In this document: positions 1,540 through 41,993 of the stretch, one piece after another
How the letters are laid out: every line of letters begins with the position of its first letter
Numbering within the stretch: the first letter of the stretch is position 1
Assembly (NCBI GenBank): GCA_964647265.1
Contig: CAZYGP010000001.1
Location: 1-46,106, forward strand
From: an uncultured Acidimicrobiaceae bacterium
GTDB lineage: Bacteria; Actinomycetota; Acidimicrobiia; Spongiisociales; UBA5794
Length of the DNA: 46,106 bases
Direction of reading: 5' to 3'
Notes under the pieces: generated by a model
Databases searched by the model: none
What the model saw: the letters and a program-made list of their open reading frames with translations, nothing else
Told to the model about the DNA's origin: nothing
Program-made: the position numbers and the translations under genes

Positions 1540-2519
1540 GTGGCGAACGCCGAATCCGCAATCCCATTGCAGGTCATGGATACTCACAAAGGATGGCGCC
1601 GCGGACTGACGTGGACAACAGCGGCCCTCTCGGAAGGGCAGCTCCGCAACGCAGGCGATTCGGTCCTGGACTTCCGGACCTTCCGGGACAAGTACATTCT
1701 GCCGAGCAGGACAGTCACGGCAAGTAGGCCCAGCCTTGACAATGCGGCAGCCCCACTCCTCCACATGCTCAGCCGGAACCCATACGGCATTGCCAGGTTT
1801 CGAGTCGACTTCGCCTTTGTTCCAGAACGCCTTGCTGTCGAAGCGGACGGTCGAGCATGGCACGACGCCGATCGCGACGCGGCAAGAGATGCATTTCTCG
1901 AAACGCTCGGATGGAGGACCATCCGATTCACCGGTAGCCAGATCTATCGAAACGTCGATGACGTGGTCGCCCAGACCATCGCTGCACTCGCAGATCGCTC
2001 GGACATCGTCACCTTCACTGAACCCGAAGCGGCGGACCGCGTGTCGATCTGGCGACGGTTCTGGAACTGGCTCACTCGCCGAAACAATCGCGACACCGTC
2101 GATCCATACGTCTCACTGACGCCGATCAAGCGGCCGATCCCACCGTGGAAGGCGGATCTCGACAACAACCAACGGCTCGCAGTCGACTCCATGGAAGGCG
2201 TTGTGCAGGTCATCGCACCCGCAGGATCAGGGAAGACACGAACGATGATCGGACGCGTCCAGGAACTCATCTCCCGCGGTGTCCCCGCAAGCCGGATCCT
2301 GTGCTCAACCTTCAACCGCGCTGCACGAGAAGAACTCGAGGATCGCCTCAAGACCCTCGGAATCGGTGATGTCGAGGTTCGGAACTTCCATGCCCTAGGT
2401 CGTCACATCCTCGACGAGGAGGGCCTACTCCGGGCCAGCGTCGGAACCGTGTCGTACGGTCAGTGGAGACGAATCGCAAAACTGGCAATGGACTCGACCA
2501 CGGACGGGGTATGGATTGA
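1540..2519 (+). pseudogene. Truncated DUF559 (Vsr-like endonuclease) - UvrD-like helicase fusion, N-terminal third only
   Basis: A DUF559-like block is present (FVPERLAVEADGRAWHD...RDAFLETLGWRTIRF), followed by a UvrD-type Walker A (VIAPAGSGKT) and motif Ia (STFNRAA). Helicase motifs II-VI are absent, and family resemblance ends around 2515-2530. Confidence 0.6.
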
Positions 2520-2700
2520 CGCCCCCGCAGAGAGGTGTTCGAACGAGCGGCGTCGCGGGTCAACGACCTGGGCCTTCTCTCCGAGGAGATCGATCTCCGC
2601 TCTGGCGCCTTGATCGGCTACCTCCGACGGGCGTTCAGCCACATCGGGCTCATCAGCGCTGCGTGGCCGATCTCCCGGGCGGAGCTTGCCGAAAGAGCCT
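2520..2700 (+). pseudogene. C-terminal fragment of a glycoside hydrolase family 15 gene
   Basis: VNDLGLLSEEIDLRSGALIGYLRRAFSHIGLISAA matches the conserved GH15 C-terminus (GLLSEE.D...G...GNFPQAFSH..LI.AA), with NFPQ degraded to YLRR. The frame opens only after a TGA at 2517-2519, and no upstream GH15 sequence is present. Confidence 0.6.
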
Positions 2701-2803
2701 CATCCCCCCGACCGCTGGCCCCACGCTCCCGGCAACGGTGTCGTGACGGCGGTGTGATCACGGCGATCCGTTCGACGGATCGGTGCGGACGGCATCGGCG
2801 ACG

Positions 2804-4036
2804 TCAGCCCGCTCCGCCTGCGAGTTGCATTGCGTACGCTGAGCGCTTCAGGCGCACCATCGCGACGATACCCAGTGCCGGGCCGAGTGCTAGCACCGGA
2901 AATGCCCAGCGCCAACCCCACATTTCGGCCAGGAGCGGGACACCCCGAATGGTCACGAGCGTCAGGAGGAACCCCACCGCGGTCTGGAGGGTCAATGCTG
3001 TCCCGCGGTGTGCGTCCTCGGCCGTCTCCGTCACCATGGCCGAGAACTGAGCCGAGTCAGCGACAACCGTCGCTCCCCACACGAGGAACACCGGGAGGAC
3101 CAGCCAGGGGGTCAGACCGAACACGAGCGGAGTCAACATGGCGCAGGTCCCGGAGATGGCCATCGCTCCGCCTGCGATCACGGTGCGTCCACGCCCGTCG
3201 GCGAGGACACCTGCCAACCATGCACCGAGCCCCCCTATCGCGATGATCGCAAAGGTCGCGCCCGGGACCCACCGGTCCCCGATTCCAGCGGACGCTGCCG
3301 ATGCGGCGAGGAACGCAGCCGTCCATGTCCACATGGCGTACAACTCCCACATATGGCCGAGGTATCCGTAGGTCGACAGTCGAATTCCCCGGTTGCGGAG
3401 TACGCCCCTCACCTGGTCCCACGAGAACCGCACCGGCACTGTCTCATACGGCCCATCGCTCACGAGAAGGCCAAGCACGCCGACCCCGATGAGCGCGAGT
3501 GCCGACGCTGCGATCAGCACTCCCTCCCAGCCGAAGCCCAGGCCACGGATCAGATGGGGTGCGGCGCTACCGACGGTCAGGGCTCCCACGAGCACTCCAA
3601 GTGCCATGCCCCGCCCACGTTCGAACCAGCCCGCCATCGCCTTGAGGCCGCTCGGGTACACACCGGCAAGGGCGACACCGGTCACAAAGCGAAGCCCGAA
3701 GGCAGCCAGCGTGTCGCCCGGCCCGAGAGCGAGGAGCGAGAGGTTGACGGCAGCACCGATCACACCGGCAACCACGAACAGGCGTCGCGCAGGAATGATG
3801 TCGGGAAGGTTCAGGAGGCCCGAGACCAGCGCTCCCACGACGAAGCCGATCTGCACCGCCAATGTGAGACCGGCAGCCTCACCCGACGTCAGCCCCCATG
3901 CGGTCTCGAGTTGGGGCGCAACCGCCGACGCCGAGAACCAGAGCGTGAGAACGAGCAGTTGGCTCGCCGAAATCGCCACAAGCGCGCTCCGCTGGCCGAT
4001 CGGGCGCGCTCGGTCGGAGGCATCTACCGCTGTCAT
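2804..4036 (-). CDS. MFS transporter
   Basis: The 410-aa product is hydrophobic with about 12 predicted TM segments and is Gly/Ala/Leu-rich, typical of MFS. Its ATGA overlaps the ccdA stop at 4033-4036. Confidence 0.7.
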   Translation of the reverse strand: MTAVDASDRARPIGQRSALVAISASQLLVLTLWFSASAVAPQLETAWGLTSGEAAGLTLAVQIGFVVGALVSGLLNLPDIIPARRLFVVAGVIGAAVNLSLLALGPGDTLAAFGLRFVTGVALAGVYPSGLKAMAGWFERGRGMALGVLVGALTVGSAAPHLIRGLGFGWEGVLIAASALALIGVGVLGLLVSDGPYETVPVRFSWDQVRGVLRNRGIRLSTYGYLGHMWELYAMWTWTAAFLAASAASAGIGDRWVPGATFAIIAIGGLGAWLAGVLADGRGRTVIAGGAMAISGTCAMLTPLVFGLTPWLVLPVFLVWGATVVADSAQFSAMVTETAEDAHRGTALTLQTAVGFLLTLVTIRGVPLLAEMWGWRWAFPVLALGPALGIVAMVRLKRSAYAMQLAGGAG

Positions 4037-4917
4037 GGCACCTGGTTGACGTCTGATTCCTCACGCTTCGCGTCGGTGCCCGGCCTTCTGGCGACCACGA
4101 CCGTGACGAGGGCTCCGCCGACGAGCAGGGCAAGGCCCAGCGAAAGGAATCCGGTGTTGTCGTTGACGAGATTCAGGGCGGTCTGTGACAGGTTCTCGAC
4201 GAACCGGAAGAGGCCCGAGTCGAGGCTCGTGGCGCCCGATGCGAGCGTGGTTCCCCAGAACCAGACGATGTAGAGGCCGGCAGCGATGAGGATCACCCCT
4301 GAGAGCGTGTTGACGTGCTTCAGCACCCGACGAAACTGGCCCACGATGGACGACTTGCCGAGTGCCAGAGCGACCGTCAGCGCCACCAGGACCAGCGCCA
4401 TACCTGCACCGTAGACGACGAACGTGACCAAGCCAGAGATGACGTTCGTTTGGGTGACCTGGCCAGCGACGACCGTCAGGAACACCGGAAGGGAGCACGA
4501 CAGGGATGCGATGGCGTACGAGACACCGAACGTGAAGATCGACCGGAAGTCGCGCGTGCTGGGGCCTCGTTTCACCTTGAACAGGCTCACATTGAGGTCG
4601 AATCCGAGTACGAGGGCCACACCGAGGGCGATCACCCCGAGACCGATCACGAGCGCCAACCACGGTATCCAATCGATGAACGATCGGAAGCCGGCGGTGA
4701 TCAACAGTCCGGCGAGACCGAAGACGACCAGGAAGCCGAGCGACACGGTGGCGCCGACAACGAGCGCTGACCTCACCGCACCAATCCACGACCGCGAGTC
4801 GCCGTCATCGATGCCCATGAAGTAGGAGAGATATGCGGGAAGCATCGCGAAGCCGCATGGGTTGATGGTTGCCACCATCCCAGCGGCGAATGCGAGGGCG
4901 ATGGGTGCCTCGATCAT
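4033..4917 (-). CDS. ccdA: Cytochrome c biogenesis/thiol-disulfide transporter CcdA (DsbD-core) family
   Basis: The N-terminus AAGMVATINPCGFAMLPAYLSYF is typical of CcdA, and a second conserved Cys lies in SYAIASLSCSLPVF. Its ATGA overlaps the upstream thioredoxin-like gene. Confidence 0.8.
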   Translation of the reverse strand: MIEAPIALAFAAGMVATINPCGFAMLPAYLSYFMGIDDGDSRSWIGAVRSALVVGATVSLGFLVVFGLAGLLITAGFRSFIDWIPWLALVIGLGVIALGVALVLGFDLNVSLFKVKRGPSTRDFRSIFTFGVSYAIASLSCSLPVFLTVVAGQVTQTNVISGLVTFVVYGAGMALVLVALTVALALGKSSIVGQFRRVLKHVNTLSGVILIAAGLYIVWFWGTTLASGATSLDSGLFRFVENLSQTALNLVNDNTGFLSLGLALLVGGALVTVVVARRPGTDAKREESDVNQVP

Positions 4918-5429
4918 GAGAGCAGGACCTCGGTGATCCGATCGACGAGCTGGCTCTCCGTCAGCGGCCCGTTGTGAACGTCGAGTATGAGACCGTCGGG
5001 GGAGATGAAGACGGTGAACGGCATCCCGAGACCCCCGAGCGCGGTGTAGAGCTCGCCGACGGGGTCCTCGGCGAGGTCGAACAGCGCGCCGGTCTCTTCA
5101 ACGAGGTCCAGCGCCCGGTCGCGCTCGTCCTGGATGTTGATCCCCAAGAACGCGACCTGGTCGCCGAGCTGCTGCTGGGCGGGGAGGAAAGCAGCAGACA
5201 TCTCCGCCACACACGACGGACACCACGATGCCCAGAAGTTGACGACCAGCGGCTCGCCCGCATAGGCGCCGAGGGAGATCTGCTCGCCCGCAAACGTCTC
5301 GAACGTTTCGCTTGGGATGGGTTCACCCTGAGGTTCATCGACTGACTCGGCGCTGCTCGAGCACGCCGCCACAATGAGAGAGAAGGCGATTAGGAGGACG
5401 GCCATCTTCGCTGTGCCCGGGAGATTCAC
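4914..5429 (-). CDS. TlpA/ResA-like thioredoxin-fold lipoprotein
   Basis: The signal peptide ends in the lipobox LIVAAC. The redox motif FWASWCPSC is present. The start may instead be the internal Met at 5405. Confidence 0.8.
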   Translation of the reverse strand: MNLPGTAKMAVLLIAFSLIVAACSSSAESVDEPQGEPIPSETFETFAGEQISLGAYAGEPLVVNFWASWCPSCVAEMSAAFLPAQQQLGDQVAFLGINIQDERDRALDLVEETGALFDLAEDPVGELYTALGGLGMPFTVFISPDGLILDVHNGPLTESQLVDRITEVLLS

Positions 5430-5744
5430 GGTGAGTCCTGCTTTGTTGGGGTCCCACCTTCAACGCCCCGCAGCGCGCTTGGTCGCGACCAACTGTCGCG
5501 AACACGTCAAACTGGCGCTCGAGCGTGCCCTGGACACCGAGCGGCGCCCCCGCGGACTTCACCGCCGGGCAAGCCAACGACTCCGACCGCGTCCGTTGGC
5601 TGCGGGTGCGTTCCGCCGCACCTCGCCGCGGCGGCGGGGCGAGCCCACGAACCACTCAACTGTCGCCTCAACGACTTTGTGATGTTGGGTTCATCCCGGG
5701 AGCGGTTCCCCTGATGTCATATCCGCGTTCCATGAGGAGGAACC

Positions 5745-6674
5745 ATGACCACGAGAATCGAGTCATTGACCCGTCCCAAGGTCGGGCAGGACACATCGAA
5801 GGGGTCGTCGCGTCGTACGGTCGGATTCGCCATCGCGGCGATTGGCCTCCTGCTGGCCATCGTCACCTTGGTGGCGAATATCAGCGCGGCAAACGATGTC
5901 GCCAGCGACCCTGCATCGTCGGCCGAGACGCTTGCCTGGAGCTTCGGCCTGACCACGACGGCGTTCGGCACGCTGAAGCTGGCCATCGGCATCATCCTGA
6001 CCGCCATCCTGATCGGACTGTGGCTCCGTGTCGACAGCGTCGAGGCGGCATTGCCGAGGCTCAAGGCGCAAGCCGACCCGGTCCTGGCGTCGGGGGATGC
6101 CGACTCGGCCCAGGGGCGTATCCAGCAGGGCTCGACGGTTCCGGCCCCACTGCCGATCCACACGATGGCAAAGCGCCTGTGGGCGCCCATGCTCGCCATG
6201 GGCTACATGTTCGTGCTGATCGGGCTGGCGGTGTCGTTCAGCTGGGCGGATGACCCGACCGACGTGGCAGCGTCGGCATGGACGCAGGGGCTGCAGTTCC
6301 TCGGCGAGGGATTCCTTCTCGCCGGTATCTCGTTCCTGCTCGGAACGATCCTGGCCTCCTTGCGAGAGGGCGGGGGACAAGTGCAGGCGTCGCTCGGCCT
6401 TACGGTCAAGACGCTGCGCATGCCGACGACGGCGAAGGCGTTCATCACCCTGATGATGCTCGGCCTGATGACGTCGATCGCCCAGTTCGTGCTGTATGTG
6501 GTCGTCGCCTCGGGCGTAGACAATCCCGCAGCGTGGTTTGCGTGGCTCGGACCACTTCGCGAGGTCGGTCTCGGGCTGCTGCTCGCAGGGATCGTGTTGG
6601 CGCTCGTGACGATCGGCAACGTACTCACCTTCCAGTTCGACCGCATCCGCCAAATCATTGCCACGGGCAATTGA
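5745..6674 (+). CDS. Uncharacterised polytopic membrane protein (paralog A, 309 aa)
   Basis: A strong RBS (gaggaggaaccATG) precedes the start. The protein has no Cys and contains three copies of a roughly 45-aa hydrophobic unit. Its C-terminal two-thirds align with the next gene (KRLWAPMLAMG / RRLWAPMFAMA; EGGGQVQASLGLTVKTLRMPTTAKAF / KGGGEIQEAAGQPVHTLRMPVTAKVF). Confidence 0.75.
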   Translation: MTTRIESLTRPKVGQDTSKGSSRRTVGFAIAAIGLLLAIVTLVANISAANDVASDPASSAETLAWSFGLTTTAFGTLKLAIGIILTAILIGLWLRVDSVEAALPRLKAQADPVLASGDADSAQGRIQQGSTVPAPLPIHTMAKRLWAPMLAMGYMFVLIGLAVSFSWADDPTDVAASAWTQGLQFLGEGFLLAGISFLLGTILASLREGGGQVQASLGLTVKTLRMPTTAKAFITLMMLGLMTSIAQFVLYVVVASGVDNPAAWFAWLGPLREVGLGLLLAGIVLALVTIGNVLTFQFDRIRQIIATGN

Positions 6675-6690
6675 GAAGAGGACGATTCAC

Positions 6691-7305
6691 ATGACTACAA
6701 CCACAACATTCGACTACGAGGTCTCACAGAAGGGCCTCGGCTACAACGGCCCCCAAGCCATGGGTCGCCGGCTCTGGGCGCCCATGTTCGCAATGGCGCT
6801 CCTCGGCTTCGCCGTCGGGTTCGTCCTCGCGGTGGTTCGAGCATCCGAGATCGCATCGTCCGGTGATCCGGAGACCATCGTCCGTCTCGGTCAGCTCATT
6901 CCCGCCTTCATGTTCGTCGGGTTCGTCGGCGTGTTCGCGGCGATCTCGTTCGCCATCGCACGGATCCTCGGTGTGTTCCGTAAGGGCGGCGGCGAGATCC
7001 AGGAGGCAGCGGGCCAACCGGTGCACACACTGCGGATGCCCGTGACGGCCAAGGTCTTCCTGGCCTCGATGATGATGGCCGCCATGATCATCATGGTGGC
7101 GATCGTGCTGCACTTCGTCGTCGCGGCGAATGCAGGGACGTGGTCACCGGAGAGCATCGAACAGTGGGCGATCAACCTGGAAGGCGCTCGCCGAGTCGGT
7201 GTGTCGCTCTTCCTCTTCGGTATTGCCTTCGGGCTCGGCACCATCGTGACGGTGTTGCGGTTCCAGGGTGTGCGTATCAGGGAGCTTGCAGCAACCCACG
7301 GTTGA
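6691..7305 (+). CDS. Uncharacterised polytopic membrane protein (paralog B, 204 aa)
   Basis: An RBS (gagaagagga) lies 8 nt before the ATG at 6691. A Met-rich TM segment is present (FLASMMMAAMIIMVAIVLHF). The gene is followed by a strong hairpin. Confidence 0.75.
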   Translation: MTTTTTFDYEVSQKGLGYNGPQAMGRRLWAPMFAMALLGFAVGFVLAVVRASEIASSGDPETIVRLGQLIPAFMFVGFVGVFAAISFAIARILGVFRKGGGEIQEAAGQPVHTLRMPVTAKVFLASMMMAAMIIMVAIVLHFVVAANAGTWSPESIEQWAINLEGARRVGVSLFLFGIAFGLGTIVTVLRFQGVRIRELAATHG

Positions 7306-7320
7306 GCCAGTTCATGCGGC

Positions 7321-7348
7321 GAGGCGCCCCGCGGTGTCGGGGCGCCTC
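7321..7348 (+). terminator. Intrinsic-terminator-like hairpin after the membrane-protein pair
   Basis: gaggcgccccg-cggtgt-cggggcgcctc forms a perfect 11-bp GC-rich stem with a 6-nt loop, 16 nt after the stop. The tail is only weakly T-rich. Confidence 0.6.
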
Positions 7349-7430
7349 ATCGCGTGTTCCGTTCGGTCCGAAACAGTAGGAATTCCGACAGTCGTGGCGG
7401 CCTCGCGGCGATTGCGGCGTTGGCGATCTC

Positions 7431-8039
7431 ATGGCACGGAGGACCAAGGCTGAGAGCGCCGCGTCGAAGCGGGCGATCGCTGATCAGCGCAGACGCGCCG
7501 CGGCAAGGCGGACGAAGATCCGTAACGGCATTCTCGTGGCTGTCGGAACCCTCGGCATCTTCGCAGCGCTCGTGATCCTCCGACCCGAGCCGCTCAGCGG
7601 TGATACCTCGGCAGAAGCGTGGGATCTTCCTGCGCTCGCCGGTGACGGCAGGGTGAAGCTCTCCGATTTCCGCGGCAAGCCGACCGTCGCGGCGTTCTTT
7701 GCGTCGTGGTGCGACGTCTGCGAACGCGAGATCCCGGAGTTCCTCGCCGTTTCCGAGCAAGTCGGTGATCAGGTTCAGTTCGTTGGCATCAATACCCAGG
7801 ACGGCGGTCGAGGGATCGGCGACGCTCGGAAGTGGGGAATCGAAGGCGCGTGGCCCCTCGCCCGCGACATCGGCAGGAGCAACGGCAGCGGTCTTTCCAG
7901 CGGCACATTCGGTATGTTCGGATCCCCGATGACCGTCTTCTACGACGCTGAAGGCATCGTCATCCACGTGCAACGAGGCGGCATGTCGGGTGGGCAACTC
8001 GTCGGAGCCCTTCAGCAGTTCTACGGTATAGGCGGCTGA
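7431..8039 (+). CDS. Membrane-anchored TlpA-like thioredoxin-fold protein
   Basis: A basic N-terminus is followed by one TM segment (ILVAVGTLGIFAALVIL). The redox motif is FFASWCDVC. Confidence 0.8.
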   Translation: MARRTKAESAASKRAIADQRRRAAARRTKIRNGILVAVGTLGIFAALVILRPEPLSGDTSAEAWDLPALAGDGRVKLSDFRGKPTVAAFFASWCDVCEREIPEFLAVSEQVGDQVQFVGINTQDGGRGIGDARKWGIEGAWPLARDIGRSNGSGLSSGTFGMFGSPMTVFYDAEGIVIHVQRGGMSGGQLVGALQQFYGIGG

Positions 8040-8118
8040 TCCGGCCCTCGAGCCGGCTACCACGGAGGCTGTTGCGCCAGGGCGGTTCGCTGTGCGAGGA
8101 GGCGCTGGCGAGCGGACG

Positions 8119-9366
8119 TCACTCCTCGATGATCTCCGTGCCTGGTTGGTAGGTCGACCAGGCGAACCAGAACGTGTCGAGGTGGTGGGCCGGTGCGAGC
8201 CGGATGCCCTCCATCTCACCGGCAACTGCGGTACCGGTGATGTCCCAGGTCGATCCGGTCTGCTCGTCCATGAACTCTCCGTCCGACGCCACGAATGTCA
8301 GGGTGGCTCCATCGACCCTGGACGAGAAGACGCCCACTGAGCCGACATCACGGCCACCGTTGACGGTGCCGTCCTCCAGTGCGGTCGATTGCCCTGCTCG
8401 CCACAGGATCACCATCGGCATGTCTCCTACCTCGGTGTTCGTGGCTGTTGCTTCACCGTGCGACAGGGCGTCGAGCGTCCATGCCCGGGATTGACCCCCC
8501 TCGACGATGCCGACGACCCGCTGCATCGCCTGAGCTCGATCGTCGAGTGCCCCACGGAACAAGAAGGGACTCGCAGACTGATCGTCGTAGCCGACGTAGG
8601 GGTTACGGCCGTAGTCGCGTTCGTATCCGGTAGCGCCGCGGTCGAGTACGTCTGCGTCAGGGAAGGCCTCCTTGAAGTCGCTCCACGCGATGAGCGGCGA
8701 TGGGATCGGGGCGAGGCGCCTTCCGGTGAGAACGCCCGCAACAGCGAGGCCGTCGAAGTGCGTCCACAGGGATTCGGTCGCCCTGTCGTACATCACCAGA
8801 GCCGAGGCGTAGAGGCGCCCGGACGTCCCGAAGGTGGTCTCGACACCGTCGATCACACGAGAGTAGGACACGGCGCTGTTGCACAGCGGGCAGTAGGTCA
8901 CGGACACGGGTTGTCCCCCAACGACATCATTGACGATCTCGTGCCAGATGAGGACCTGCACGGGATACGCGTGCACATCGCCTTCGATCTCGAGGTATAC
9001 GACAGGCTCGGCATCGGTGAGCCACTCGTCTGCCGCCTCCGTTGTCACGAAGGCCGGATCGTCGATTGGGGGAATTCCATCGGGAGGCGGTCCCCCCGAG
9101 ATGATGTCGGCGGGATCGACGAGAGGCGTCGGCAGTTGCGGATCATCGATGGTTCGCAGGGCCGATGGTCCCTCCGGAAGGCCGGATCCGGCATCCGTTG
9201 GTGCGACCGTTGTCGATGTACCGCCCGCCGTCGTGTCGGGCGCCTCTGATGGCTGTTGGGTCGTGTCGACGGAGGACGCATCGATGTCGTCACCTACCCC
9301 CTTCGTTGCGCAGGCTGCGGCAACCACCGCAAGAATCAGAACGACGGCTGCGATGGCTGTCCGCAT
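8119..9366 (-). CDS. DUF3179-family lipoprotein (copy 1)
   Basis: The start is set at MRTAIAAVVLILAVVAAAC (signal peptide plus lipobox). The conserved core is HAYPVQVLIWHEIVND...VTYCPLCNSAVSY...GTSGRLYASALVMYDRATESLW. Confidence 0.75.
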   Translation of the reverse strand: MRTAIAAVVLILAVVAAACATKGVGDDIDASSVDTTQQPSEAPDTTAGGTSTTVAPTDAGSGLPEGPSALRTIDDPQLPTPLVDPADIISGGPPPDGIPPIDDPAFVTTEAADEWLTDAEPVVYLEIEGDVHAYPVQVLIWHEIVNDVVGGQPVSVTYCPLCNSAVSYSRVIDGVETTFGTSGRLYASALVMYDRATESLWTHFDGLAVAGVLTGRRLAPIPSPLIAWSDFKEAFPDADVLDRGATGYERDYGRNPYVGYDDQSASPFLFRGALDDRAQAMQRVVGIVEGGQSRAWTLDALSHGEATATNTEVGDMPMVILWRAGQSTALEDGTVNGGRDVGSVGVFSSRVDGATLTFVASDGEFMDEQTGSTWDITGTAVAGEMEGIRLAPAHHLDTFWFAWSTYQPGTEIIEE

Positions 9367-9409
9367 GGATGTCTCCGCTCTCCGGCTCCGTTGATTCCGA
9401 TCATCGTCG

Positions 9410-9760
9410 TCATACAGCGTGCACCTGCCGCGCGCGGCCGAGGGCCACGAGGTACCCGACAGCCCCGCCAACCACCGCCGCGGCGAAGGATTCGAACGCG
9501 GCATTCCCCCACGGCAGCAGCGACGCGCCCTGGAGCGCGCCTCCCAGCGCAAGGAGGGTCGTGAGTGCTACGGCGATTGTGAAGCCGGCCATGGCCATCG
9601 GGAGCGGCCTGCGGTCCGATCGATCCGCGATCGGCGGCCATGCCGCGACGATCAGCGGGGCCAGGTGATATGTCGTTGTTGGAGAGATGCTCGCGAGCAC
9701 TACCCATAGGGAACCGAATGCCGCAGCACCCAGGAGCGGCGCGTAGCTCTTGATGTTCAT
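9410..9760 (-). CDS. Small hydrophobic membrane protein (116 aa)
   Basis: It has three to four hydrophobic segments. It lies 43 nt upstream of, and co-oriented with, DUF3179 copy 1. Confidence 0.5.
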   Translation of the reverse strand: MNIKSYAPLLGAAAFGSLWVVLASISPTTTYHLAPLIVAAWPPIADRSDRRPLPMAMAGFTIAVALTTLLALGGALQGASLLPWGNAAFESFAAAVVGGAVGYLVALGRARQVHAV

Positions 9761-9848
9761 GGCTTGGCAACGCTCGCGATTACTGCCGCCGTTCGCCGAT
9801 GGTCAGAACTCCGACAGTCTGGTCGGGACTCCGCGAGTCGTGCGACAG

Positions 9849-10631
9849 TCACCTCACGGAGCAGGACAGGCCCCAGTCGTACGTCTGGAACCCGACTCCG
9901 GGCGTAGCGGCCTCGATCGACTCCTGTGTCGACGGCTCGATCCAACTGCTCAACGCTGAGAGCACGGCGCGCCGGCGCGTGGGGAGGATCGTGGGCATAC
10001 TCGCCGGCCGGACGAAGTCAGCGCCGAACCACAGGAACACCCTCGACAGCATCACCAGGTTGCGCTCCTCGTCGTAGATCAGGCCGCCCGATGCGAGGAA
10101 GTGGCGCATCTGGTCATCCAGTTGCTGGGCGATGACGACACCTCGGTACGGTTCACCGCGCAACGTGGGACATGACACAGATCCGCAGACCAGGGCAGCG
10201 TGGATGCGAGGGTCGCGGAACCTTCGCAGCTTGCCGTGCTCGATGTCGTCGAGCGACAGGTCCTCGCCGCCGATCCGTACGACCGGTTTGCGAAACGCAC
10301 CGGGGACGAGCAGCACGGACGTCGCCCCCTGCTGCTGTGCCTCCGCCGCACGAGCGAGTGCGCCTGCGTTGTAGAGGTTGATCCACATGGCCAGTGCCTC
10401 GTCGCGGGTCAGCTCATCGGGATCGACCGCCCGAACGGAGGAGAGGTAGGCACCGAGGTCCCCGGACAGTGACGTGAGCACGCCCGGTCCGTTGTCGGCG
10501 AGTCTCGAGAGTGAGCCTGCCAGCGCCCCGTGGTCCATCGTGGAGGTCCCGAGCGGATTCGGTCTGGCCACCCGCGCAAGGGCTGACACGATCGACCATG
10601 CGGCCACGACCGGGTTTGGGCTATCGCTCAT
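9849..10631 (-). CDS. DUF547 domain protein
   Basis: WINLYNAGAL ... LSLDDIEHGKLRRFRDPRIHAALVCGSVSCPTL is present. The start is trimmed to MSDSPNP at 10631. Confidence 0.7.
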   Translation of the reverse strand: MSDSPNPVVAAWSIVSALARVARPNPLGTSTMDHGALAGSLSRLADNGPGVLTSLSGDLGAYLSSVRAVDPDELTRDEALAMWINLYNAGALARAAEAQQQGATSVLLVPGAFRKPVVRIGGEDLSLDDIEHGKLRRFRDPRIHAALVCGSVSCPTLRGEPYRGVVIAQQLDDQMRHFLASGGLIYDEERNLVMLSRVFLWFGADFVRPASMPTILPTRRRAVLSALSSWIEPSTQESIEAATPGVGFQTYDWGLSCSVR

Positions 10632-10752
10632 GGCTGTGCAAACCTCGGCGCGGTCCGGTCTCTTCCTGCAAGTGTGATCCTCGTCGAACGACCAATTGTC
10701 GGACGTCTGACACTGATCGAGCACTCCTCGTGGTCCAGGGCTTCCCTGCGTC

Positions 10753-11601
10753 TCAGGTGGTGCCTCCCCTGCGCAGTGCAACTCGTCTGGCGAGCTCGCC
10801 GAAGGTCGGGTCGATCTCGTAGCGGTACCCTTCCCACCACCCATCCTTGTCGGGTACGAAGCGCCGTGGGGAGGCGACCGACGAGGCAAGGGCTCTGGCC
10901 TTCATGGCTCGTTCGAGCTCCCGCATCGCGGCGTCGTCGAGGTCGGCCGCGGGGACCGGCGGAAGAATCTCCATCGACACGCGTTGCCCGATTCGAACGG
11001 TGGGGGCGAAGGGGTGGGCCCACACGGTGTGGCTCCCCGTCAGCACCACGGGCAGAAGCGGTCGGTCGACGCTCCGGGCGATCCGCGAGACGCCCGTTCT
11101 GAAGGCGACCTCGATACCCAGTATCGATCCCTGCGGGAAGACGACGAGGCTCTCCCCGGACTCGAAGACGCCGTGGATGTCACGCATCAGGCTCCGACTC
11201 GCCGCCACGCCCGGGCGCTCATCGACGCGAACCTGACGAGAAGCCCGCAGATAAGCACCGAGCACGGGCCAGTCGAACAGCTCGTCACGTGCGGTGAAGC
11301 GCAGGTCAAGGGGCAACCTGAGCAGGGCGAGAGCATCGGCGAATCCCTCGTGGAGGGACGCCACCACGTACTGGCTCTTCGAGTCCACGTGGTGCAGTCC
11401 GGTGATGTCGAGCCGAAGGTCGACGAGCCTCGCCGCGCTCGCCGCCCAGGTCCGCTCGGCTGCGCGCATGACTCGACGGCTCCCTGTGGCAGCCAGGACG
11501 GTCAGGAAGCGCCCGCCGGCGCCGACGAGGAGACGGGATCCAACAGCCACACGGAGTGCATCTGCATCGTTTGCGGCCACGAACCGAGGCAGCTCGCTCA
11601 C
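10753..11601 (-). CDS. Lysophospholipid (PlsC-type) acyltransferase
   Basis: The H(X)4D box (SLHEGFAD) and FPQGSI motifs are present. The GTG start overlaps the upstream stop as GTGA. Confidence 0.7.
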   Translation of the reverse strand: MSELPRFVAANDADALRVAVGSRLLVGAGGRFLTVLAATGSRRVMRAAERTWAASAARLVDLRLDITGLHHVDSKSQYVVASLHEGFADALALLRLPLDLRFTARDELFDWPVLGAYLRASRQVRVDERPGVAASRSLMRDIHGVFESGESLVVFPQGSILGIEVAFRTGVSRIARSVDRPLLPVVLTGSHTVWAHPFAPTVRIGQRVSMEILPPVPAADLDDAAMRELERAMKARALASSVASPRRFVPDKDGWWEGYRYEIDPTFGELARRVALRRGGTT

Positions 11602-12245
11602 AGGTGCGCGTACTGCACGGCTGCTGCCCTCTTCCTCGCACCCAGAACCAGCGTGGACACGGCGATGATCGCTGCCACGACATCGAACGGCAACACGTGC
11701 CGAATGAGGGCATCACGGTCGACGACCCAGCCACCATCGGCTGCGAAGCCGACGGCATCCAGGTAGCTCCAGATCGACCACACGCACACGGCCGCGACCA
11801 TGAGCGCCGCCACCATGCCCGCACGTCGACCTGCGATCCACGTCACGCCGATGAGGACTGCCGCGGTGACCCACGCAATATCCATCGCGGACAGCAGCTG
11901 GAGGAACTGTGCAGAGGGCTGGAATCTGAGCGCGGCCGAGGACGCCAGGGTGACGAGGGCGACGGCTCCCGTGGTGAGGGCGACCACCGACGCACCGGAG
12001 GCGAGATGGCGCGAGGTCGGCGACAGCCACACGAACCACGGCCGGGGAAGGTACCGGGACAGGTCCCCGGCAAGGGCGAGGCCAAGCACGACCAAGGCGG
12101 CGAGGTGAAGGATCATGAGAGCGGAGAGATCTGTCGCCGCCGGCGCAGAGACGACGAGACCCGCCGCGGCGAAGATCGCCGCGGCGGGCACCACCCACAG
12201 CACCGCCCTTGCGACGGCTGCTTCGATCGCTACAGGGTCGCTCAC
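11598..12245 (-). CDS. Hydrophobic membrane protein (about 215 aa)
   Basis: It has multiple TM segments. The start is set at the GTG at 12245, which forms a GTGA overlap with the reductase stop. The longer ORF in the track would overlap the reductase by 94 nt. Confidence 0.5.
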   Translation of the reverse strand: MSDPVAIEAAVARAVLWVVPAAAIFAAAGLVVSAPAATDLSALMILHLAALVVLGLALAGDLSRYLPRPWFVWLSPTSRHLASGASVVALTTGAVALVTLASSAALRFQPSAQFLQLLSAMDIAWVTAAVLIGVTWIAGRRAGMVAALMVAAVCVWSIWSYLDAVGFAADGGWVVDRDALIRHVLPFDVVAAIIAVSTLVLGARKRAAAVQYAHL

Positions 12246-13711
12246 ACGAATATTCTCGCCTGTTCGTCCCGGTATGTCTCGAGGAGCCGCAGCCACACCT
12301 CGCTGAGAGTCGGAAACGCCGGAACGGCGTGCCACAGCGTTGCAAGAGGCACCTCGCCGACAATGGCAATGGTCGCGGCGTGCAGGAGCTCTCCTGCACG
12401 AGGCCCGACGAAGGTCGCGCCGATGATGATGTCGCGGGCGGGATCGATCACCAGCTTGCTCGTACCCTTATAGCCCCTGCCCAGCGTGGCGGCGCCAGCG
12501 ACGTGGCCAATGTCGTAGCTGACGGTGTGGATCTCGATCCCTTGCGAGCGGGCCTGGGCCTCCGTCAACCCCACGGCAGCGAGCTCGGGGCTGGTGAAGA
12601 CCACCCTCGGCGTGGCACGTGTGTCGCCCCAGGCACGTGTCTCGTTCCCCGCGACGACGGCACCTGCGATGCGAGCCTGATACTTCCCCGTGTGGGTCAA
12701 CAGTGATCGTCCGTTCACATCGCCGACGGCGAACAGCCAGCCACCTGGAACGTCTCGGGCCCTGAGATGCTCATCGACCTCGATGTATGTGCCAGCCTCC
12801 AGCCCCACGGTCTCGAGGCCGACATCTGTTGTGTTCGGACGGCGGCCGGTGGAGACGAGGACCTCATCAGCCTCGATGGAGATCGTCGTTCCGTCCACGA
12901 GATCCACCACTGCCGTCACGGGCCCGTCGGTGCCAAGACGTCCGATCTCCGTCGTCACAGCCGACGTGTGCACGACGATGCCCATGCGGACGAGGGCGTC
13001 AGCGAGCTCCCTTCCGGCGAACGACTCCTCGCGAGGGAGGAGATGGTCGGCGAGCTCGAGGATCGTCACCTCCTCACTGCCCAGCCACTTCCACGCCTGG
13101 GCCATCTCGACACCAACGACGCCTCCACCGATGACGAGCAGCCGGCGCGGTGCCTTCTTCGCGGTTGTCACTGCCCGACTGTCCCAGATGCCCGCACCCG
13201 CAAGGCCGGGTATCGGCGGAAACGACGCAGACGAGCCGGTGGCGACAATCACAGCTCTATCCGCCCGGAACGTGCGAATGGCGCCCTCGGCATCGGTCAC
13301 CTCGACACGACGTTCACCCGCCAGACGGGCATGGCCCCGGATGAGGTCGACGCCCGCCCCCTCCAGCCAGGCCACCTGTCCCGAATCGTCCCAGTTCCCG
13401 GACAGGGCGTCGCGCCGAGCGAGTGCCTCCTCGATGTCGATCGATCCCGTTGCAGCGGCCCGAGCGCCCGGCACCCTTCGTATCGCGTCGAGCGCCTCAC
13501 CTGCTCGGAGGAGAGCCTTGGAGGGCATGCATGCCCAGTAAGTGCACTCCCCGCCGACGAGATCGTGTTCCACGAGCGCTACCCGCAGGCCGCCCCGTAC
13601 GGCTATGTCTGCCGCGTTCTCACCTGCCGGCCCACCACCGATGACCACGACGTCGTATGACGTGTCGTCACCATCGGTGGGGAGCGGTGCTGGTCGGTCG
13701 TGGTTCTGCAT
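12242..13711 (-). CDS. FAD/NAD(P)-dependent pyridine nucleotide-disulfide oxidoreductase (dihydrolipoamide-dehydrogenase / mycothione-reductase-like)
   Basis: It has a dinucleotide fold (VVVIGGGPAGENAA), a redox-active disulfide motif (GGECTYWACMPSK), a second Rossmann motif (LLVIGGGVVGVEMA) and a C-terminal dimerisation region. Confidence 0.8.
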   Translation of the reverse strand: MQNHDRPAPLPTDGDDTSYDVVVIGGGPAGENAADIAVRGGLRVALVEHDLVGGECTYWACMPSKALLRAGEALDAIRRVPGARAAATGSIDIEEALARRDALSGNWDDSGQVAWLEGAGVDLIRGHARLAGERRVEVTDAEGAIRTFRADRAVIVATGSSASFPPIPGLAGAGIWDSRAVTTAKKAPRRLLVIGGGVVGVEMAQAWKWLGSEEVTILELADHLLPREESFAGRELADALVRMGIVVHTSAVTTEIGRLGTDGPVTAVVDLVDGTTISIEADEVLVSTGRRPNTTDVGLETVGLEAGTYIEVDEHLRARDVPGGWLFAVGDVNGRSLLTHTGKYQARIAGAVVAGNETRAWGDTRATPRVVFTSPELAAVGLTEAQARSQGIEIHTVSYDIGHVAGAATLGRGYKGTSKLVIDPARDIIIGATFVGPRAGELLHAATIAIVGEVPLATLWHAVPAFPTLSEVWLRLLETYRDEQARIFV

Positions 13712-13971
13712 CGTGGATCCTTTCGAGGATTGGCGCGGCTGGCGCGCCGAACGTTGTCTTCGTGAACCCCGCCGGGCATCGGTCGAACCTGGTCACCGGT
13801 TCGGCAGGCTGGTGGGTCGTCAAGGGAACGGATCGGTTGGCCCGGGGCTTCAGGGACTGTCGGGGTCCCGACACTCGCGGGCGACTCTCGGAATGGGAGG
13901 TTGTCGCGATCACTTGGTCATGGTGGGACCACGGCCGTGGCCGGGACCCTTCACGACCCAAGGAAACACAC

Positions 13972-14472
13972 ATGCAGACCACATCCGCCACCGTCGAGAT
14001 CGGAGCCCCAGCGCAGAAGGTGTGGGAGGTCCTCGCAGACTTCGGCAACATCGCCGCATTCAATCCGGGTCTCATTCGCTCATACCTCACCGGCGAGTCA
14101 GCCGGTGGCGTCGGGGCGACCCGTCACTGCGATCTCGCCGTTCCCGGCGCCTCCATCGAGGAGAGAATCATCGATTGGGTCGACGGCGAGTCGTACACGG
14201 TCGACATCTATCAGGGCACCCGCAATCCGTTCGCCAGCGCCACAGCCACGCTCGGGGTGTCCTCCATCGATGCAGAGAGCTCTCGCGCGATGATGACGAT
14301 CCGGTGGAAGGCGAAAGGTGGGATCCTCTCAGGGCTGCTCGATCGTGGTCTTCGAGGGCAGAACCGCAAGGCGATCAAGGGCGTCCTCGCCGGCCTGAAG
14401 CATCATGTCGAGACCGGTGCGCCCGTCGAGGCACGCCAGCGAGTTGACACGTCCTCCGTCAGTAGAGCGTGA
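13972..14472 (+). CDS. SRPBCC (polyketide cyclase/START-like) family protein
   Basis: An RBS (aaggaaaca) precedes the ATG at 13972. The N-terminus IGAPAQKVWEVLADFGNIAAFNP is typical of SRPBCC proteins. Confidence 0.65.
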   Translation: MQTTSATVEIGAPAQKVWEVLADFGNIAAFNPGLIRSYLTGESAGGVGATRHCDLAVPGASIEERIIDWVDGESYTVDIYQGTRNPFASATATLGVSSIDAESSRAMMTIRWKAKGGILSGLLDRGLRGQNRKAIKGVLAGLKHHVETGAPVEARQRVDTSSVSRA

Positions 14473-18167: not shown

Positions 18168-18352
18168 GATGAACCCTCCAACGCCAGCAGCGACGGAGCA
18201 TTGAGAGAATGACCCAAAAGCGACAATCCCTCGGGCCGCGGACTAGCTCAACGCGCGCAGTTCGCAGGAGTATCCGCCGCACCGGCGTCAGGCAATGGTC
18301 GGAAATGCGACAATTACCCGCCCGCCTGCGCCGGAGCCTGGTTGATGGAGCC

Positions 18353-19672
18353 ATGCGAGCGCGGACCTCGGTCATGATCGCCGCCATCGCCATGATCGCC
18401 GTGGCATGTAGCGGTGGTGCCGACTCGGCGGGCGACGGCGGCCCTTCCGCTGGTCCGGTCGTGGCATCGCGTGCGACAGGGTTCGAACGGACGCTGCCCG
18501 CAGGCCCCTCTGCTCTTGACGACATGGCACACCCTGCGCTGCCGGTCCCCCTCGTCGAGCCGTCCGAGATCATCCCGGGGGGTCCACCACCCGACGGTAT
18601 CCCGTCGATCGACATTCCCGAGTTCATCCCGATCGCCGCCGCGGACACGTGGCTCGCGGACGAGGAACCGGTGGTGTACCTCGAGATCAACGGCGACGTG
18701 CACGCATACCCGGTCCAGGTGCTCTTGTGGCACGAGATCGTCAACGACACCGTCGGCGGGGTTCCGGTGGCGGTGACCTATTGCCCGTTGTGCAACAGCG
18801 CGGTCAGTTACGAGCGCGCCGTAGATGGGATCGAGACCACGTTCGGGACGTCGGGGAGCCTGTATGCGTCGGCGCTCGTGATGTACGACCGAGCAACCGA
18901 GTCCCTCTGGACGCATTTCGATGGCCGGGCCGTGGCGGGAGTACTCACGGGCCGCAAGCTCGAGCCGATATCGTCGCCGTTGCTGGCGTGGTCGACGTTC
19001 AAGGAGGCCTTTCCCACCGGACTCGTCCTTGACAAGGCGGCGACGGGCTTCGCGTTCCCGTATGGCGAGAACCCGTACGTCGGCTACGACAACCCGGAGT
19101 CGATACCGTTCCTGTTCCGCGGCACCGTCGACACACGCGCACGGGCCAAGGAACGGGTCATCGGTGTGGCGCTTGGAGACGCCGCCTCTGCGTGGACGCT
19201 CGACACCATCTCTGGCGGGCACGCAACCGCCACGAATACAACCGTAGGGGAAGAACCCGTTGTGATCCTGTGGCAAGAGGGACAGGTGACCGCGCTCGAG
19301 ACCCAGCGACTGATCTCGGGGCGGGACGTCGGATCCGTGGGGGTCTTCCGATCGATCGTTGACGGATCCCTCCTCGTCTTCGAGGCAATTGGCGATCGGT
19401 TCGTCGACACCGAGACGGGCACGGAGTGGGACATCACGGGAGCGGCGATCGCCGGCCCCCTCGCCGGCGAAAGGCTCGAGCGCATCCACCACCTCGATAC
19501 GTTCTGGTTCGCATGGTCAACCTACCGACCCGGAACGGACCTCGTGGCTGAGCCTTCCCCGGTACCGAGTCCACCCTCGCCATCAGCGCCGGAGGACGGC
19601 CTTCCCGATGGGCCTCCTGTGAGGCCTCAGCACTTCGGTCGACCCCCGCCCCAATGGGTGAGCTCGTACTGA
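18353..19672 (+). CDS. DUF3179-family lipoprotein (copy 2)
   Basis: The start is set at MRARTSVMIAAIAMIAVAC (lipobox). By eye the core is about 80 percent identical in amino acids to copy 1, including VTYCPLCNSAVSY. Confidence 0.75.
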   Translation: MRARTSVMIAAIAMIAVACSGGADSAGDGGPSAGPVVASRATGFERTLPAGPSALDDMAHPALPVPLVEPSEIIPGGPPPDGIPSIDIPEFIPIAAADTWLADEEPVVYLEINGDVHAYPVQVLLWHEIVNDTVGGVPVAVTYCPLCNSAVSYERAVDGIETTFGTSGSLYASALVMYDRATESLWTHFDGRAVAGVLTGRKLEPISSPLLAWSTFKEAFPTGLVLDKAATGFAFPYGENPYVGYDNPESIPFLFRGTVDTRARAKERVIGVALGDAASAWTLDTISGGHATATNTTVGEEPVVILWQEGQVTALETQRLISGRDVGSVGVFRSIVDGSLLVFEAIGDRFVDTETGTEWDITGAAIAGPLAGERLERIHHLDTFWFAWSTYRPGTDLVAEPSPVPSPPSPSAPEDGLPDGPPVRPQHFGRPPPQWVSSY

Positions 19673-19801
19673 CAGCGCCCGACCGGTGGTTCTCGCGACG
19701 ATCGAGCCCGGATGCGTCGCTTCGTCGATCGTTCACGTCGGAATGGTCCGATGCCGCCGCGGGTTGACATCGGCACCTGCAATCGCTGAGGAGCAAACCT
19801 G

Positions 19802-20617
19802 ATGAATAGCATCGACCTTCCGGCCCTGCGTCCCGATTTCGAGGCAACGCGAGCCACGCTGCACGCCTATGCAAAGGCCGTTGGCGCCATCCCGAGGGCG
19901 CACGGCATCGCCCATCCGAACTGGTGGCACATCAGCCTCAAGGTGAGGCCGGAGGGGCTGGTGACCGACCTCATCCCGCTTCCGGGCGGCGGGGCGATGG
20001 CCATCGTGATGGACGTCAGGCACCACGAGATCGTCGTGCGATCGAGCGAGGGCGCTGTGCGGACCATCGACCTTCGGGATGCGCGAACAGCCTCGGAAAT
20101 GGGGGCGACCTTGGCCTCGATCGCGGCAGAGTTCGGCCTCCCCGACGTGTACGAACGCGACCGATTCGAGAGTGACGATGCCAGAACGTACGATCCGGCT
20201 GCGGCCGCTGCGTACCTCGATGCGTTCGTGGACGTGACGGCCACCTTCGAGCGACATCGGGTGACGCTGGGCGACCGCGTCGGCCCGATCCAGGTGTGGC
20301 CGCACAACTTCGATCTGGCATTCGAATGGTTCGGAACACGCACCCAGGAACACGACGGGGTCGTGCTGCCGTCACAGCTGAACCTCGGCTTCTATCCGGC
20401 AGGCGATGAGCCCTACTTCTACTCGAATCCGTGGCCGTTCGACGAGAGCCTCACCGACACACCCCTGCCAGAGGGCGCTGTGTGGCACACGGAGGGGTGG
20501 CAGGGCACGCTGTTGCCATATGCCGTCGTACAGGCCGATCCCGACGGACCCGCACGGCTTGCCGCCTACGCCCGAGCCGTGTTCGACGCCGCCTCCCCGA
20601 CCCTCGAGGCCACGTGA
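19802..20617 (+). CDS. Conserved hypothetical protein (possibly DUF5996-like)
   Basis: An RBS (gaggagcaaacctgATG) precedes the start. The 271-aa product is soluble and contains WPHNFDLAFEWF. The family name is recalled from memory, not verified. Confidence 0.55.
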   Translation: MNSIDLPALRPDFEATRATLHAYAKAVGAIPRAHGIAHPNWWHISLKVRPEGLVTDLIPLPGGGAMAIVMDVRHHEIVVRSSEGAVRTIDLRDARTASEMGATLASIAAEFGLPDVYERDRFESDDARTYDPAAAAAYLDAFVDVTATFERHRVTLGDRVGPIQVWPHNFDLAFEWFGTRTQEHDGVVLPSQLNLGFYPAGDEPYFYSNPWPFDESLTDTPLPEGAVWHTEGWQGTLLPYAVVQADPDGPARLAAYARAVFDAASPTLEAT

Positions 20618-21354: not shown

Positions 21355-21484
21355 CAGGGCACGGGACACTCGACTGTCCGAAATCCGACGCGTTGGAGCT
21401 CGTGACGAGCCACGTGGAGTTGTGACGGGAACGGCGAGGTGCCAGCTTCGCCTTCCGCCCACGACACAGAAAGAGGATGCCAAG

Positions 21485-22030
21485 ATGACCCGTGTCCCGA
21501 TCCATGACCTCGATTCGGCCCCGGAAGGGAGTCGCCGAGCGCTCGAGCGAGCGGCCGGCAGGACAGGGCGGATCCTCAACATCCATGGCGCTATGGCGGT
21601 TTCGCCGCTGCTCGTCGATCTGTACGACACCATGGAATCGACGCTTGCGGAGCGGTCGTCGCTCGGCGAACCGCTTCGGCAGGCCATCCACCTGGCCGTG
21701 GCGGCATCCAACGAATGCGGCTACTGCCAGTCCGCTTATACAGGCGCCGCCCGTCGGAATGGCTTCACGGTCGACGAGACGATCCAGATCCGCAAGGGAT
21801 TCCTCGATGGGAAAGACGATCTGACCTCGGTGCTGCGGGTCGCGCAGGAGATCGCGGAGAACAAAGGGTACGTGGACGAGCGGACGTGGAACGCGGCGCT
21901 GTCGGAGGGCTGGACCGAGGAGCAGTTGCTCGAGGTGTACGCGGAGGTGGTGCGCACCATATTCACGAACTACTTCAACCACCTCGTCGTGACGGCGATG
22001 GACCTTCCCCCAGCACCGCCTATCGAGTGA
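21485..22030 (+). CDS. Carboxymuconolactone decarboxylase (AhpD-like) family protein
   Basis: An RBS (aaagaggatgcc) precedes the start. The AhpD-type motif SNECGYCQSAY (CxxC) is present. Confidence 0.7.
   Translation: MTRVPIHDLDSAPEGSRRALERAAGRTGRILNIHGAMAVSPLLVDLYDTMESTLAERSSLGEPLRQAIHLAVAASNECGYCQSAYTGAARRNGFTVDETIQIRKGFLDGKDDLTSVLRVAQEIAENKGYVDERTWNAALSEGWTEEQLLEVYAEVVRTIFTNYFNHLVVTAMDLPPAPPIE

Positions 22031-41918: not shown

Positions 41919-41993
<75 letters not shown>

Follow-up and report, generated by a model that had tools for sequence, protein, structure and literature searches.

The 46,106-nt stretch of DNA analysed here (the window), which belongs to a 2.5-Mb, 80%-complete assembly of an uncultured Acidimicrobiaceae bacterium, carries two tandem genes for membrane proteins, P4 and P5, among genes for extracytoplasmic thiol chemistry: a thioredoxin-fold lipoprotein (TlpA1), CcdA and an MFS transporter on one side, and a membrane-anchored thioredoxin-fold protein (TlpA2) and a DUF3179 lipoprotein on the other (Table 1). 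An earlier reading of the letters alone (the sequence-only reading) had described this arrangement, whose flanking genes our domain scans recovered as described, as an uncharacterised envelope module, which raises the question of whether the P4/P5 pair belongs with its neighbours at all and, if so, what holds the set together. We find that the module is probably a regulon, not an operon, because a common operator is conserved while physical linkage is not. Taking the explanation as a whole, we hold with moderate confidence that the pair forms a membrane complex of an undescribed family in an envelope thiol-redox stress regulon controlled by a Cmr-type regulator, and that it is a self-contained cassette that moves between genomes and in this host resides on a tRNA-Met island. 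Membership of the pair in such a regulon is, taken separately, likely, and its identity as a heteromeric channel or transporter is tentative, falling slightly short of an even chance.

We compared 80 genome loci encoding P4 relatives, from Acidimicrobiia, Gaiellales, Nitriliruptorales and some Chloroflexota, all compared genomes being metagenome-assembled. The sequence-only reading had envisaged a neighbourhood conserved with TlpA and CcdA, and this preset linkage test refuted physical linkage, as each of the two occurs within 10 kb of the pair at only 3 of the 80 loci, and an MFS gene at 1. DUF3179 (15 loci) and a disulfide reductase (12 loci) are found more often within that distance, so that the suggested tie to DUF3179 persists as a loose linkage and not as conserved adjacency. 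No conserved operon partner in more than 9 loci emerged from all-against-all clustering of open reading frames (ORFs) at the 80 loci or from a Pfam tally of 137 immediate neighbours, in which the commonest families were DoxX (9), cyclic nucleotide monophosphate (cNMP)-binding/Crp (7), MFS (5), SRPBCC (5) and Pyr_redox_2 (4) and no thioredoxin-type family stood among the top 25; these neighbour tallies are lower bounds, the ORF calling (based on GC content at third codon positions) being crude and having missed some genes, including the Cmr-like gene. The surroundings of the pair are diverse (dnaK operon, PspC-type kinases, MFS, alcohol dehydrogenases and more), and in genomes G158 and G146 the TlpA-CcdA-MFS genes and DUF3179 lie on contigs other than that of the pair. 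Such widely varying neighbourhoods, together with the rarity of TlpA and CcdA beside the pair, would suit a pair that is unrelated to the thiol-redox genes and whose adjacency and shared motif are coincidental; the frequencies of DUF3179 and disulfide reductase, however, are far above the expectation for families of two to four copies, and the regulatory sequences and distribution described below speak against coincidence more directly.

The classical CRP consensus TGTGA-N6-TCACA fitted the regions upstream of the pair poorly, and a TGTC/GACA variant was therefore tried, leading to the 16-bp palindrome TGTCR-N6-YGACA. Of 52 loci, 45 have this operator (24 perfect, 21 with one mismatch) at a distance of 64-129 nt ahead of the P4 start, as opposed to 0.03 perfect and 0.93 one-mismatch sites expected from shuffled sequences. 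We then scanned the whole assembly at a threshold of at least 14.5 bits, using a weight matrix derived from the remaining loci without the window, and found that seven of the sixteen best sites in the genome fall inside the window, where 0.29 would be expected, and that all seven lie in promoter regions. Units of the window that bear the operator include P4/P5, tlpA1-ccdA-MFS, DUF547, the genes for disulfide reductase and SRPBCC, and DUF3179 in both copies, and a third DUF3179 gene, on contig C9, has a top-scoring site at -40. The same sites recur in the locus L097 (96% identical) and in genomes G158, G170 and G146, with equivalents ahead of tlpA scoring 18.1 bits in L097 and 17.0 bits in G158; in other clades, DoxX has an operator of its own in 7 of 9 loci and the Crp-like neighbour in 4 of 10. 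Of the 201 genomes of the class that were searched, 28 have the Cmr-like gene, 49 have DUF3179 and 12 have an intact pair, and every one of these 12 carries both of the others. The operator at 45 of 52 loci, the concentration of sites in the window and this complete co-occurrence all argue against a chance neighbour, which we consider decidedly improbable. The proposed module is thus retained as a regulatory link through a common Cmr-type operator and abandoned as a conserved operon.

The candidate regulator is the product of a Cmr-like gene within the window. Compared with proteins of the PDB, it matches Mycobacterium tuberculosis Cmr (5W5B) over residues 1-218 at E=1.1e-30 vs 2e-12 for CRP_Mt, and this full-length match to Cmr above CRP classes it as Cmr-type by similarity; the Crp-like neighbour of the pair elsewhere is 78% identical to it. 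What sets Cmr apart from CRP is its preference for a 16-bp palindrome having C in position 4 and G in position 13 (PMC5758884), and the operator described here has both, so that binding is predicted by analogy: the regulator would bind TGTCR-N6-YGACA upstream of the pair and, likewise, the sites at tlpA1-ccdA-MFS, both DUF3179 genes, DUF547 and disulfide reductase/SRPBCC, which would make these one regulon. In M. tuberculosis, Cmr (Rv1675c) activates genes for extracytoplasmic thiol oxidoreductases, the divergent rv1676-dsbF, and senses redox state through Cys36 and Cys131 (PMC5499769). The two systems share a CRP/FNR-family regulator, a 4C/13G 16-bp palindrome, autoregulatory sites, and local targets that include extracytoplasmic thioredoxin-fold proteins of the TlpA/DsbF type. 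They differ in that the predicted regulon here comprises DUF3179, CcdA, DUF547, DoxX, SRPBCC and the orphan pair, and in that the window regulator is without the Cys36-Cys131 switch; as it has Ser and Ala at the aligned positions and no cysteine anywhere, its signal must differ from that of mycobacterial Cmr.

Autoregulatory sites stand ahead of the Cmr-like genes of related genomes, and no operator lies directly upstream of the Cmr-like gene of the window. Because its start overlaps the DUF5996 stop, this gene is probably read from the promoter of DUF3179 copy 2. Across 18353-22030, DUF3179 copy 2, DUF5996, the Cmr-like gene and a gene for a CGYC-containing member of the AhpD/CMD family share one orientation, and they are probably one autoregulated operon transcribed from the operator at 18297. 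By inspection of coordinates, about 11 of the 28 genomes that encode the Cmr-like protein have its gene less than 5 kb from one for DUF3179. A regulator that lacks the cysteine switch needs some other input, and one could picture the pair as that input, a membrane sensor or anchor that, for example, sequesters the regulator through its cytoplasmic loops and is not an effector. Conservation within the pair is indeed highest on the cytoplasmic side, and the Cmr-like gene adjoins the pair in several genomes (6-7 loci; also G146, G086 and G194). Against such a role, the Cmr-like gene occurs without the pair in 16 of its 28 genomes, indicating that the regulator works alone, and the regulator retains a complete cNMP-binding-type domain that could bind a small ligand; we judge a signalling partnership to be very unlikely.

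The predicted targets include the DUF3179 lipoproteins. Both window copies match PF11376 above the cut-off (329.7 bits for copy 1, 329.1 bits for copy 2) and contain a CxxC motif, CPLC, at residues 160-163 and 144-147, respectively, which together assign them to this family. As the sequence-only reading had it, the motif is the sole conserved cysteine pair, the only further cysteine being that of the lipobox (in copy 1, Cys20 beside C160-P-L-C163). A short paralog in a related genome (L094:1150-2166, G170:C64, minus strand) has an in-frame TGA at the position of the first cysteine (VLVTWUPLCGTAM) and is likely a selenoprotein form, so that the window CPLC sits at the UxxC position; DUF3179 is named in two reviews among the UxxC/T selenoprotein families. 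Because relatives carry selenocysteine there and the reviews list such a family, the CPLC motif is likely a redox-active site. As a separate observation, about a dozen DUF3179 matches in related genomes contain one TGA, and several of these lie less than 5 kb from a Cmr-like gene.

TlpA and CcdA are plausible suppliers of reductant to DUF3179. The CcdA candidate matches PF02683 at 26.2 bits (E=5.9e-6), slightly below the 27.1 cut-off, and has two transmembrane (TM) cysteines, Cys21 in NPCGF and Cys141 in SCSLP, which class it as CcdA/DsbD_TM; TlpA1 and TlpA2 (Redoxin matches at E=1.6e-14 and 7.8e-10) are assigned to the TlpA/ResA type by fold, WCxxC motif and lipoprotein signal or TM anchor. 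A co-directional cluster of TlpA-CcdA-MFS, Cmr and DUF3179 genes in G158 counts in support of the link. The proposal that the CPLC site is a client of TlpA/CcdA gains from the WUPLC relative, which supports a redox-active site, and needs amending in one respect: CcdA need not be dedicated to it. That proposal had been drawn from an absence of cytochrome c maturation genes, which holds for the window, where neither ResB nor ResC occurs, and fails for the genome, since contig C17 (5884-10895) has PF01578 matches that are CcmF-like (712-aa frame) and CcmC-like (274-aa frame), with a TlpA-like gene nearby. By its gene content, the organism seems to rely on cytochrome c maturation of the System I type; the 80%-complete assembly has no ResB (PF05140) that would point to System II (ResB/ResC) as the TlpA-CcdA client. 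As the window CcdA is the sole CcdA found in that assembly, it may also serve cytochrome c maturation.

Systems that join CcdA to membrane-anchored thioredoxins are known as CcdA-ResA/StoA in Bacillus subtilis, CcdA-Etrx-MsrAB2 in Streptococcus pneumoniae and TlpA in Bradyrhizobium. The window resembles them in tlpA1-ccdA, a classical reductant-import pair, in the two TM cysteines of CcdA and in having two external CxxC thioredoxin-fold proteins. It departs from them in coupling tlpA1-ccdA to an MFS gene, in its predicted co-regulation with DUF3179 and not with ResB/ResC or Msr, and in the orphan pair, which has no known counterpart there. A new point is the link of DUF3179 to TlpA-CcdA and to a Cmr-type operator.

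The pair itself consists of tandem paralogs, as had been proposed. Both ORFs occupy the coordinates in Table 1, P5, preceded by an AGAGGA ribosome-binding site, starting 16 nt past the end of P4, and the proteins are 39% identical across 197 aa (BLASTP, E=1e-25) and match in profile-profile comparison at 99.95% probability (E=1e-37), the C-terminal two thirds of P4 being the counterpart of P5. AlphaFold2 models (predicted local distance difference test scores of 87 for P4 and 93 for P5; predicted template-modelling score 0.83) show three long helical hairpins in P4 and two in P5, with short strands within the connecting loops. The repeat copy numbers given in the sequence-only reading therefore stand, and its unit of about 45 aa gives way to a two-TM hairpin of about 90 aa (85-95 aa); the hairpins match one another weakly by hhalign (E=5e-5 to 5e-4; probability just 31-67%). 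Hydropathy and the positive-inside rule give N-in/C-in topologies with six and four TM helices, very short extracytoplasmic loops and, by virtue of this topology, a cytoplasmic position for the conserved loop (pattern GGG...TLRMP.TAK; REGGGQVQASLGLTVKTLRMPTTAKAF in P4, RKGGGEIQEAAGQPVHTLRMPVTAKVF in P5). The conservation claimed for this loop was borne out, as it is near-invariant in 37 P4 and 32 P5 homologs, and so was the lack of cysteine, which is absent from both proteins, from all 32 P5 homologs and from 31 of the 37 P4 homologs.

That the sequence-only reading could assign these proteins to no family was borne out, even with confident models in hand. Pfam returned no match at E<=0.1 and NCBIfam noise alone (E>=0.05), a profile search of PDB sequences gave nothing significant (best E=1.6), and the best Foldseek hits against the PDB reached E=0.12 for P4 and 0.02 for P5. 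Close homologs number about a thousand for each protein, all unnamed or "hypothetical" and, wherever a source is named, from Acidimicrobiia, and a whole-library profile search found 270 clusters among 1.84 billion representatives, with the named sources being Acidimicrobiia-type, Gaiellales or Chloroflexota metagenome-assembled genomes. P5 directly follows P4 in 72 of the 73 loci with room for it, across a gap of about 10-25 nt, and the two genes are an obligate pair.

Several candidate identities were rejected. The P4 fold matches to GPCR and OST-alpha are noise, the P5 matches to V-ATPase c-subunit and BAR-domain folds are weak, and DoxX, a 4-TM protein often found in thiol operons, was rejected as a remote homolog at an hhalign probability of 0.2%. 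V-type ATPase c subunits, the best fold matches of P5, resemble it in their repeated helical hairpins and two-hairpin, four-helix form (E=0.02, TM-scores 0.38/0.47); the match is weak, however (root-mean-square deviation 8.6 A), the helices of P5 and P4 are much longer and reach into the cytoplasm, and P5 has no conserved membrane carboxylate, the E188 of P4 lying near the outer end of TM4. A rotor-ring proteolipid was rejected on this lack of a mid-membrane carboxylate and on the absence of ATPase genes among the 137 immediate neighbours.

What the pair does must be judged from its architecture. P4 and P5 would be two subunits of one complex of three plus two hairpins and ten TM helices, with both termini and the GGG-TLxMP-TAK loops of each in the cytoplasm; tight gene coupling, paralogy and hairpin architecture suggest such a five-hairpin heteromer. 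As the proteins have neither cysteine nor haem-type His pairs, a single invariant His each at non-equivalent positions and hardly any extracytoplasmic surface, a role in thiol or haem redox chemistry or in docking lipoproteins is unlikely, and we infer that the pair acts as a channel or transporter and not as a redox protein. In hairpins 2 and 3, the first helix carries conserved Met residues on a single face of its cytoplasmic end (M141/M149/M152/M155 and M237/M242 in P4, with the same pattern in P5), and conserved charges lie near the outer ends (K78, E188, R272 and E273 in P4; E164, R167 and R168 in P5). Together with the long cytoplasmic helix extensions, these features fit a gated conduit. 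A more specific form of this idea, which we consider unlikely, is a new class of membrane conduit in which the five hairpins close into a pseudo-five-fold ring, where Gly/Met-rich first helices line a pore gated by Met rings, the long second helices and small beta-strands form a cytoplasmic collar, and the conduit, induced by the Cmr-type regulator, moves thiophilic or thiol species for extracytoplasmic CxxC/UxxC proteins. If this were true, its cargo could be Cu(I), a low-molecular-weight thiol such as island-made ergothioneine, or sulfur or selenium species, each of which, taken singly, is an improbable substrate at best.

The methionines have prompted two further explanations. The sequence-only reading had called the proteins Met-rich and suggested a metal, which is apt for P5 (5.4%, family mean 6.1%) and for certain P4 helices and not for P4 overall (2.9%, family mean 3.7%). 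On this account the pair would conduct a thiophilic metal such as Cu(I), and TlpA, CcdA and DUF3179 would keep metal-binding or metal-damaged cysteines reduced; the one-faced Met pattern, the Met content of P5 and the predicted co-regulation with CxxC envelope proteins are in keeping with it, as is the service of TlpA in copper-site assembly in Bradyrhizobium. Against it, the conserved Met lie in the inner-leaflet half, the pair shows intramembrane Met stripes without the extracytoplasmic Met/His motifs of CTR and Cus, its short outer loops being free of Met/His clusters, P4 as a whole is not Met-rich, and Met rings can also be plain hydrophobic gates. Copper genes are missing from the top of the neighbour tally, HMA, Sco, multicopper oxidase and CsoR all falling outside its 25 commonest families, and we regard metal conduction as quite unlikely. 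Alternatively, the helices of P5 might be rich in Met in order to scavenge membrane oxidants, with repair by methionine sulfoxide reductases, and in one clade (6 loci) an MsrB-like gene, recognized by sequence without a Pfam scan, does lie a few genes from the pair. Individual conservation of the Met on one helix face indicates a structural or functional site over bulk scavenging, however, and the conserved non-Met motifs of the pair (the GGG loop, WTQGLQFLGEG and LGPLRE) would be left unexplained, which makes a methionine sink extremely improbable.

The distribution of the pair is patchy: it occurs in 13 of the 201 genomes of the class (12 with an intact pair) and is missing from G110, of the same genus. 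G110 has the tRNA region and lacks both the pair and the Cmr-like gene. In the rest of the class, beyond this order, the sole match is weak: a lone P4-like frame (G084:C61:55574-56533) that contains an in-frame TGA, lacks a P5 partner and may be a decayed copy. In the window, a 47-nt direct repeat at 1-47 and 41919-41965 corresponds to the 3' half of tRNA-Met and, with an integrase and the tRNA-Met gene as further markers, identifies 48-41918 as a predicted integrated tRNA-Met island of about 42 kb. Its cargo includes the whole predicted Cmr regulon, egt genes and zwf/gnd.

Table 1. Genes, predicted operators and island markers of the window
Feature	Position	Strand	Description
MFS transporter	2804-4036	-	start overlaps ccdA stop; same three-gene order in G158 and L097
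CcdA (DsbD_TM)	4033-4917	-	two Cys, in NPCGF and SCSLP
TlpA1, thioredoxin-fold lipoprotein	4914-5429	-	WCPSC; lipobox VAAC; first gene of tlpA1-ccdA-MFS
Cmr-type operator	5494-5509		TGTCGCGAACACGTCA; 17.0 bits; 65 nt upstream of tlpA1 start
Cmr-type operator	5661-5676		TGTCGCCTCAACGACT; one mismatch; 84 nt upstream of P4 start; also in 96%-identical L097
P4	5745-6674	+	309 aa; six TM, N-in/C-in, three two-TM hairpins; Cys-free; no known family
P5	6691-7305	+	204 aa; four TM, two hairpins; 5.4% Met; Cys-free; P4 paralog
TlpA2, membrane-anchored thioredoxin-fold protein	7431-8039	+	WCDVC; N-terminal TM; in variable segment
DUF3179 lipoprotein, copy 1	8119-9369	-	non-lipobox Cys only in CPLC
Membrane protein	9410-9760	-	116 aa; recurs beside DUF3179
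Cmr-type operator	9801-9816		GGTCAGAACTCCGACA; 14.7 bits; 41 nt upstream of operon of small TM protein and DUF3179
DUF547 protein	9849-10631	-	
Cmr-type operator, perfect	10697-10712		TGTCGGACGTCTGACA; 20.8 bits; 65 nt upstream of DUF547
Reductase operon	10753-13711	-	pyridine-nucleotide disulfide reductase 12242-13711, membrane protein 11598-12335, acyltransferase 10753-11601
Cmr-type operator, perfect	13858-13873		TGTCGGGGTCCCGACA; 19.1 bits; between disulfide reductase operon and SRPBCC gene
SRPBCC (Polyketide_cyc2) protein	13972-14472	+	
Cmr-type operator	18297-18312		GGTCGGAAATGCGACA; 17.2 bits; 41 nt upstream of DUF3179 copy 2; divergent from egt operon
DUF3179 lipoprotein, copy 2	18353-19672	+	
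DUF5996	19802-20617		stop overlapped by Cmr-like GTG start
Cmr-like CRP/FNR regulator	20614-21354	+	Cys-free; GTG start overlaps DUF5996 stop; downstream of DUF3179 copy 2
GH15 glucodextranase-like gene	32425-34923		
Cmr-type operator	34931-34970		strongest of genome (23 bits) at 34931, plus second site 24 nt away; between GH15 and Rieske-TPP genes
Rieske [2Fe-2S]-thiamine-pyrophosphate (TPP) enzyme fusion	35013-37073		unusual fusion
Tyrosine integrase	40091-41281		arm-binding domain
Direct-repeat copy and tRNA-Met gene	41919-41993		

Some neighbouring features vary or recur among related loci. Directly 3' of it, 7309-8112 is replaced in L097 by the non-homologous segment L097:10121-11132 between flanks that are 91-95% identical, and the replacement encodes a different TlpA-like protein, 29% identical to TlpA2; by this comparison the region behind the pair is a variable thioredoxin cassette. 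At 2327-4190, L097 also encodes MauE/DoxX_2 and two DsbA-family proteins, whose divergent genes flank a perfect site (TGTCGGAAAGCCGACA) at 3124, and the corresponding position of the window holds different DNA with integrase and helicase remnants. A membrane protein of about 116-124 aa with a TYHLAPL motif and no Pfam match recurs at DUF3179, either divergent from it or co-directional with it (9410-9760, L095:4685-5059, L094:3793-4152). The SRPBCC family directly follows the pair in five Gaiellales-type loci. Successive stops and starts overlap throughout tlpA1-ccdA-MFS, and a scan of 5300-8300 for promoter and terminator consensus sequences found nothing.

Several observations weigh against the thiol-redox regulon that we propose. 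The strongest site of the genome, at 34931, lies between genes for a GH15 glucodextranase and a Rieske-TPP enzyme, which fit the theme poorly; the site of the pair in the window carries one mismatch; and the sites at the DUF3179 genes start GGTC instead of TGTC. The regulator is without both redox cysteines of M. tuberculosis Cmr, the term "redox stress" derives solely from the content of the regulon, and binding by the Cmr-like protein is argued by analogy with M. tuberculosis Cmr. The co-occurrence of pair, regulator and DUF3179 is phylogenetically non-independent, and within the order (about 50 genomes) it gives p ~2.5e-4, uncorrected for phylogeny. Gene coupling and architecture, finally, are the whole basis for the heteromer and for transport.

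Our findings turn a loose neighbourhood into a testable regulon of about eight transcription units that share one operator and one regulator. They would extend the link between Cmr and extracytoplasmic thioredoxins from M. tuberculosis to distant Actinomycetota, in which the regulator is unable to use the cysteine switch, and they offer DUF3179 its first functional context, as a plausible partner of TlpA and CcdA under predicted Cmr control. The P4/P5 pair represents a compact membrane family with an apparently new fold and is the most consistently operator-linked member of this predicted regulon.

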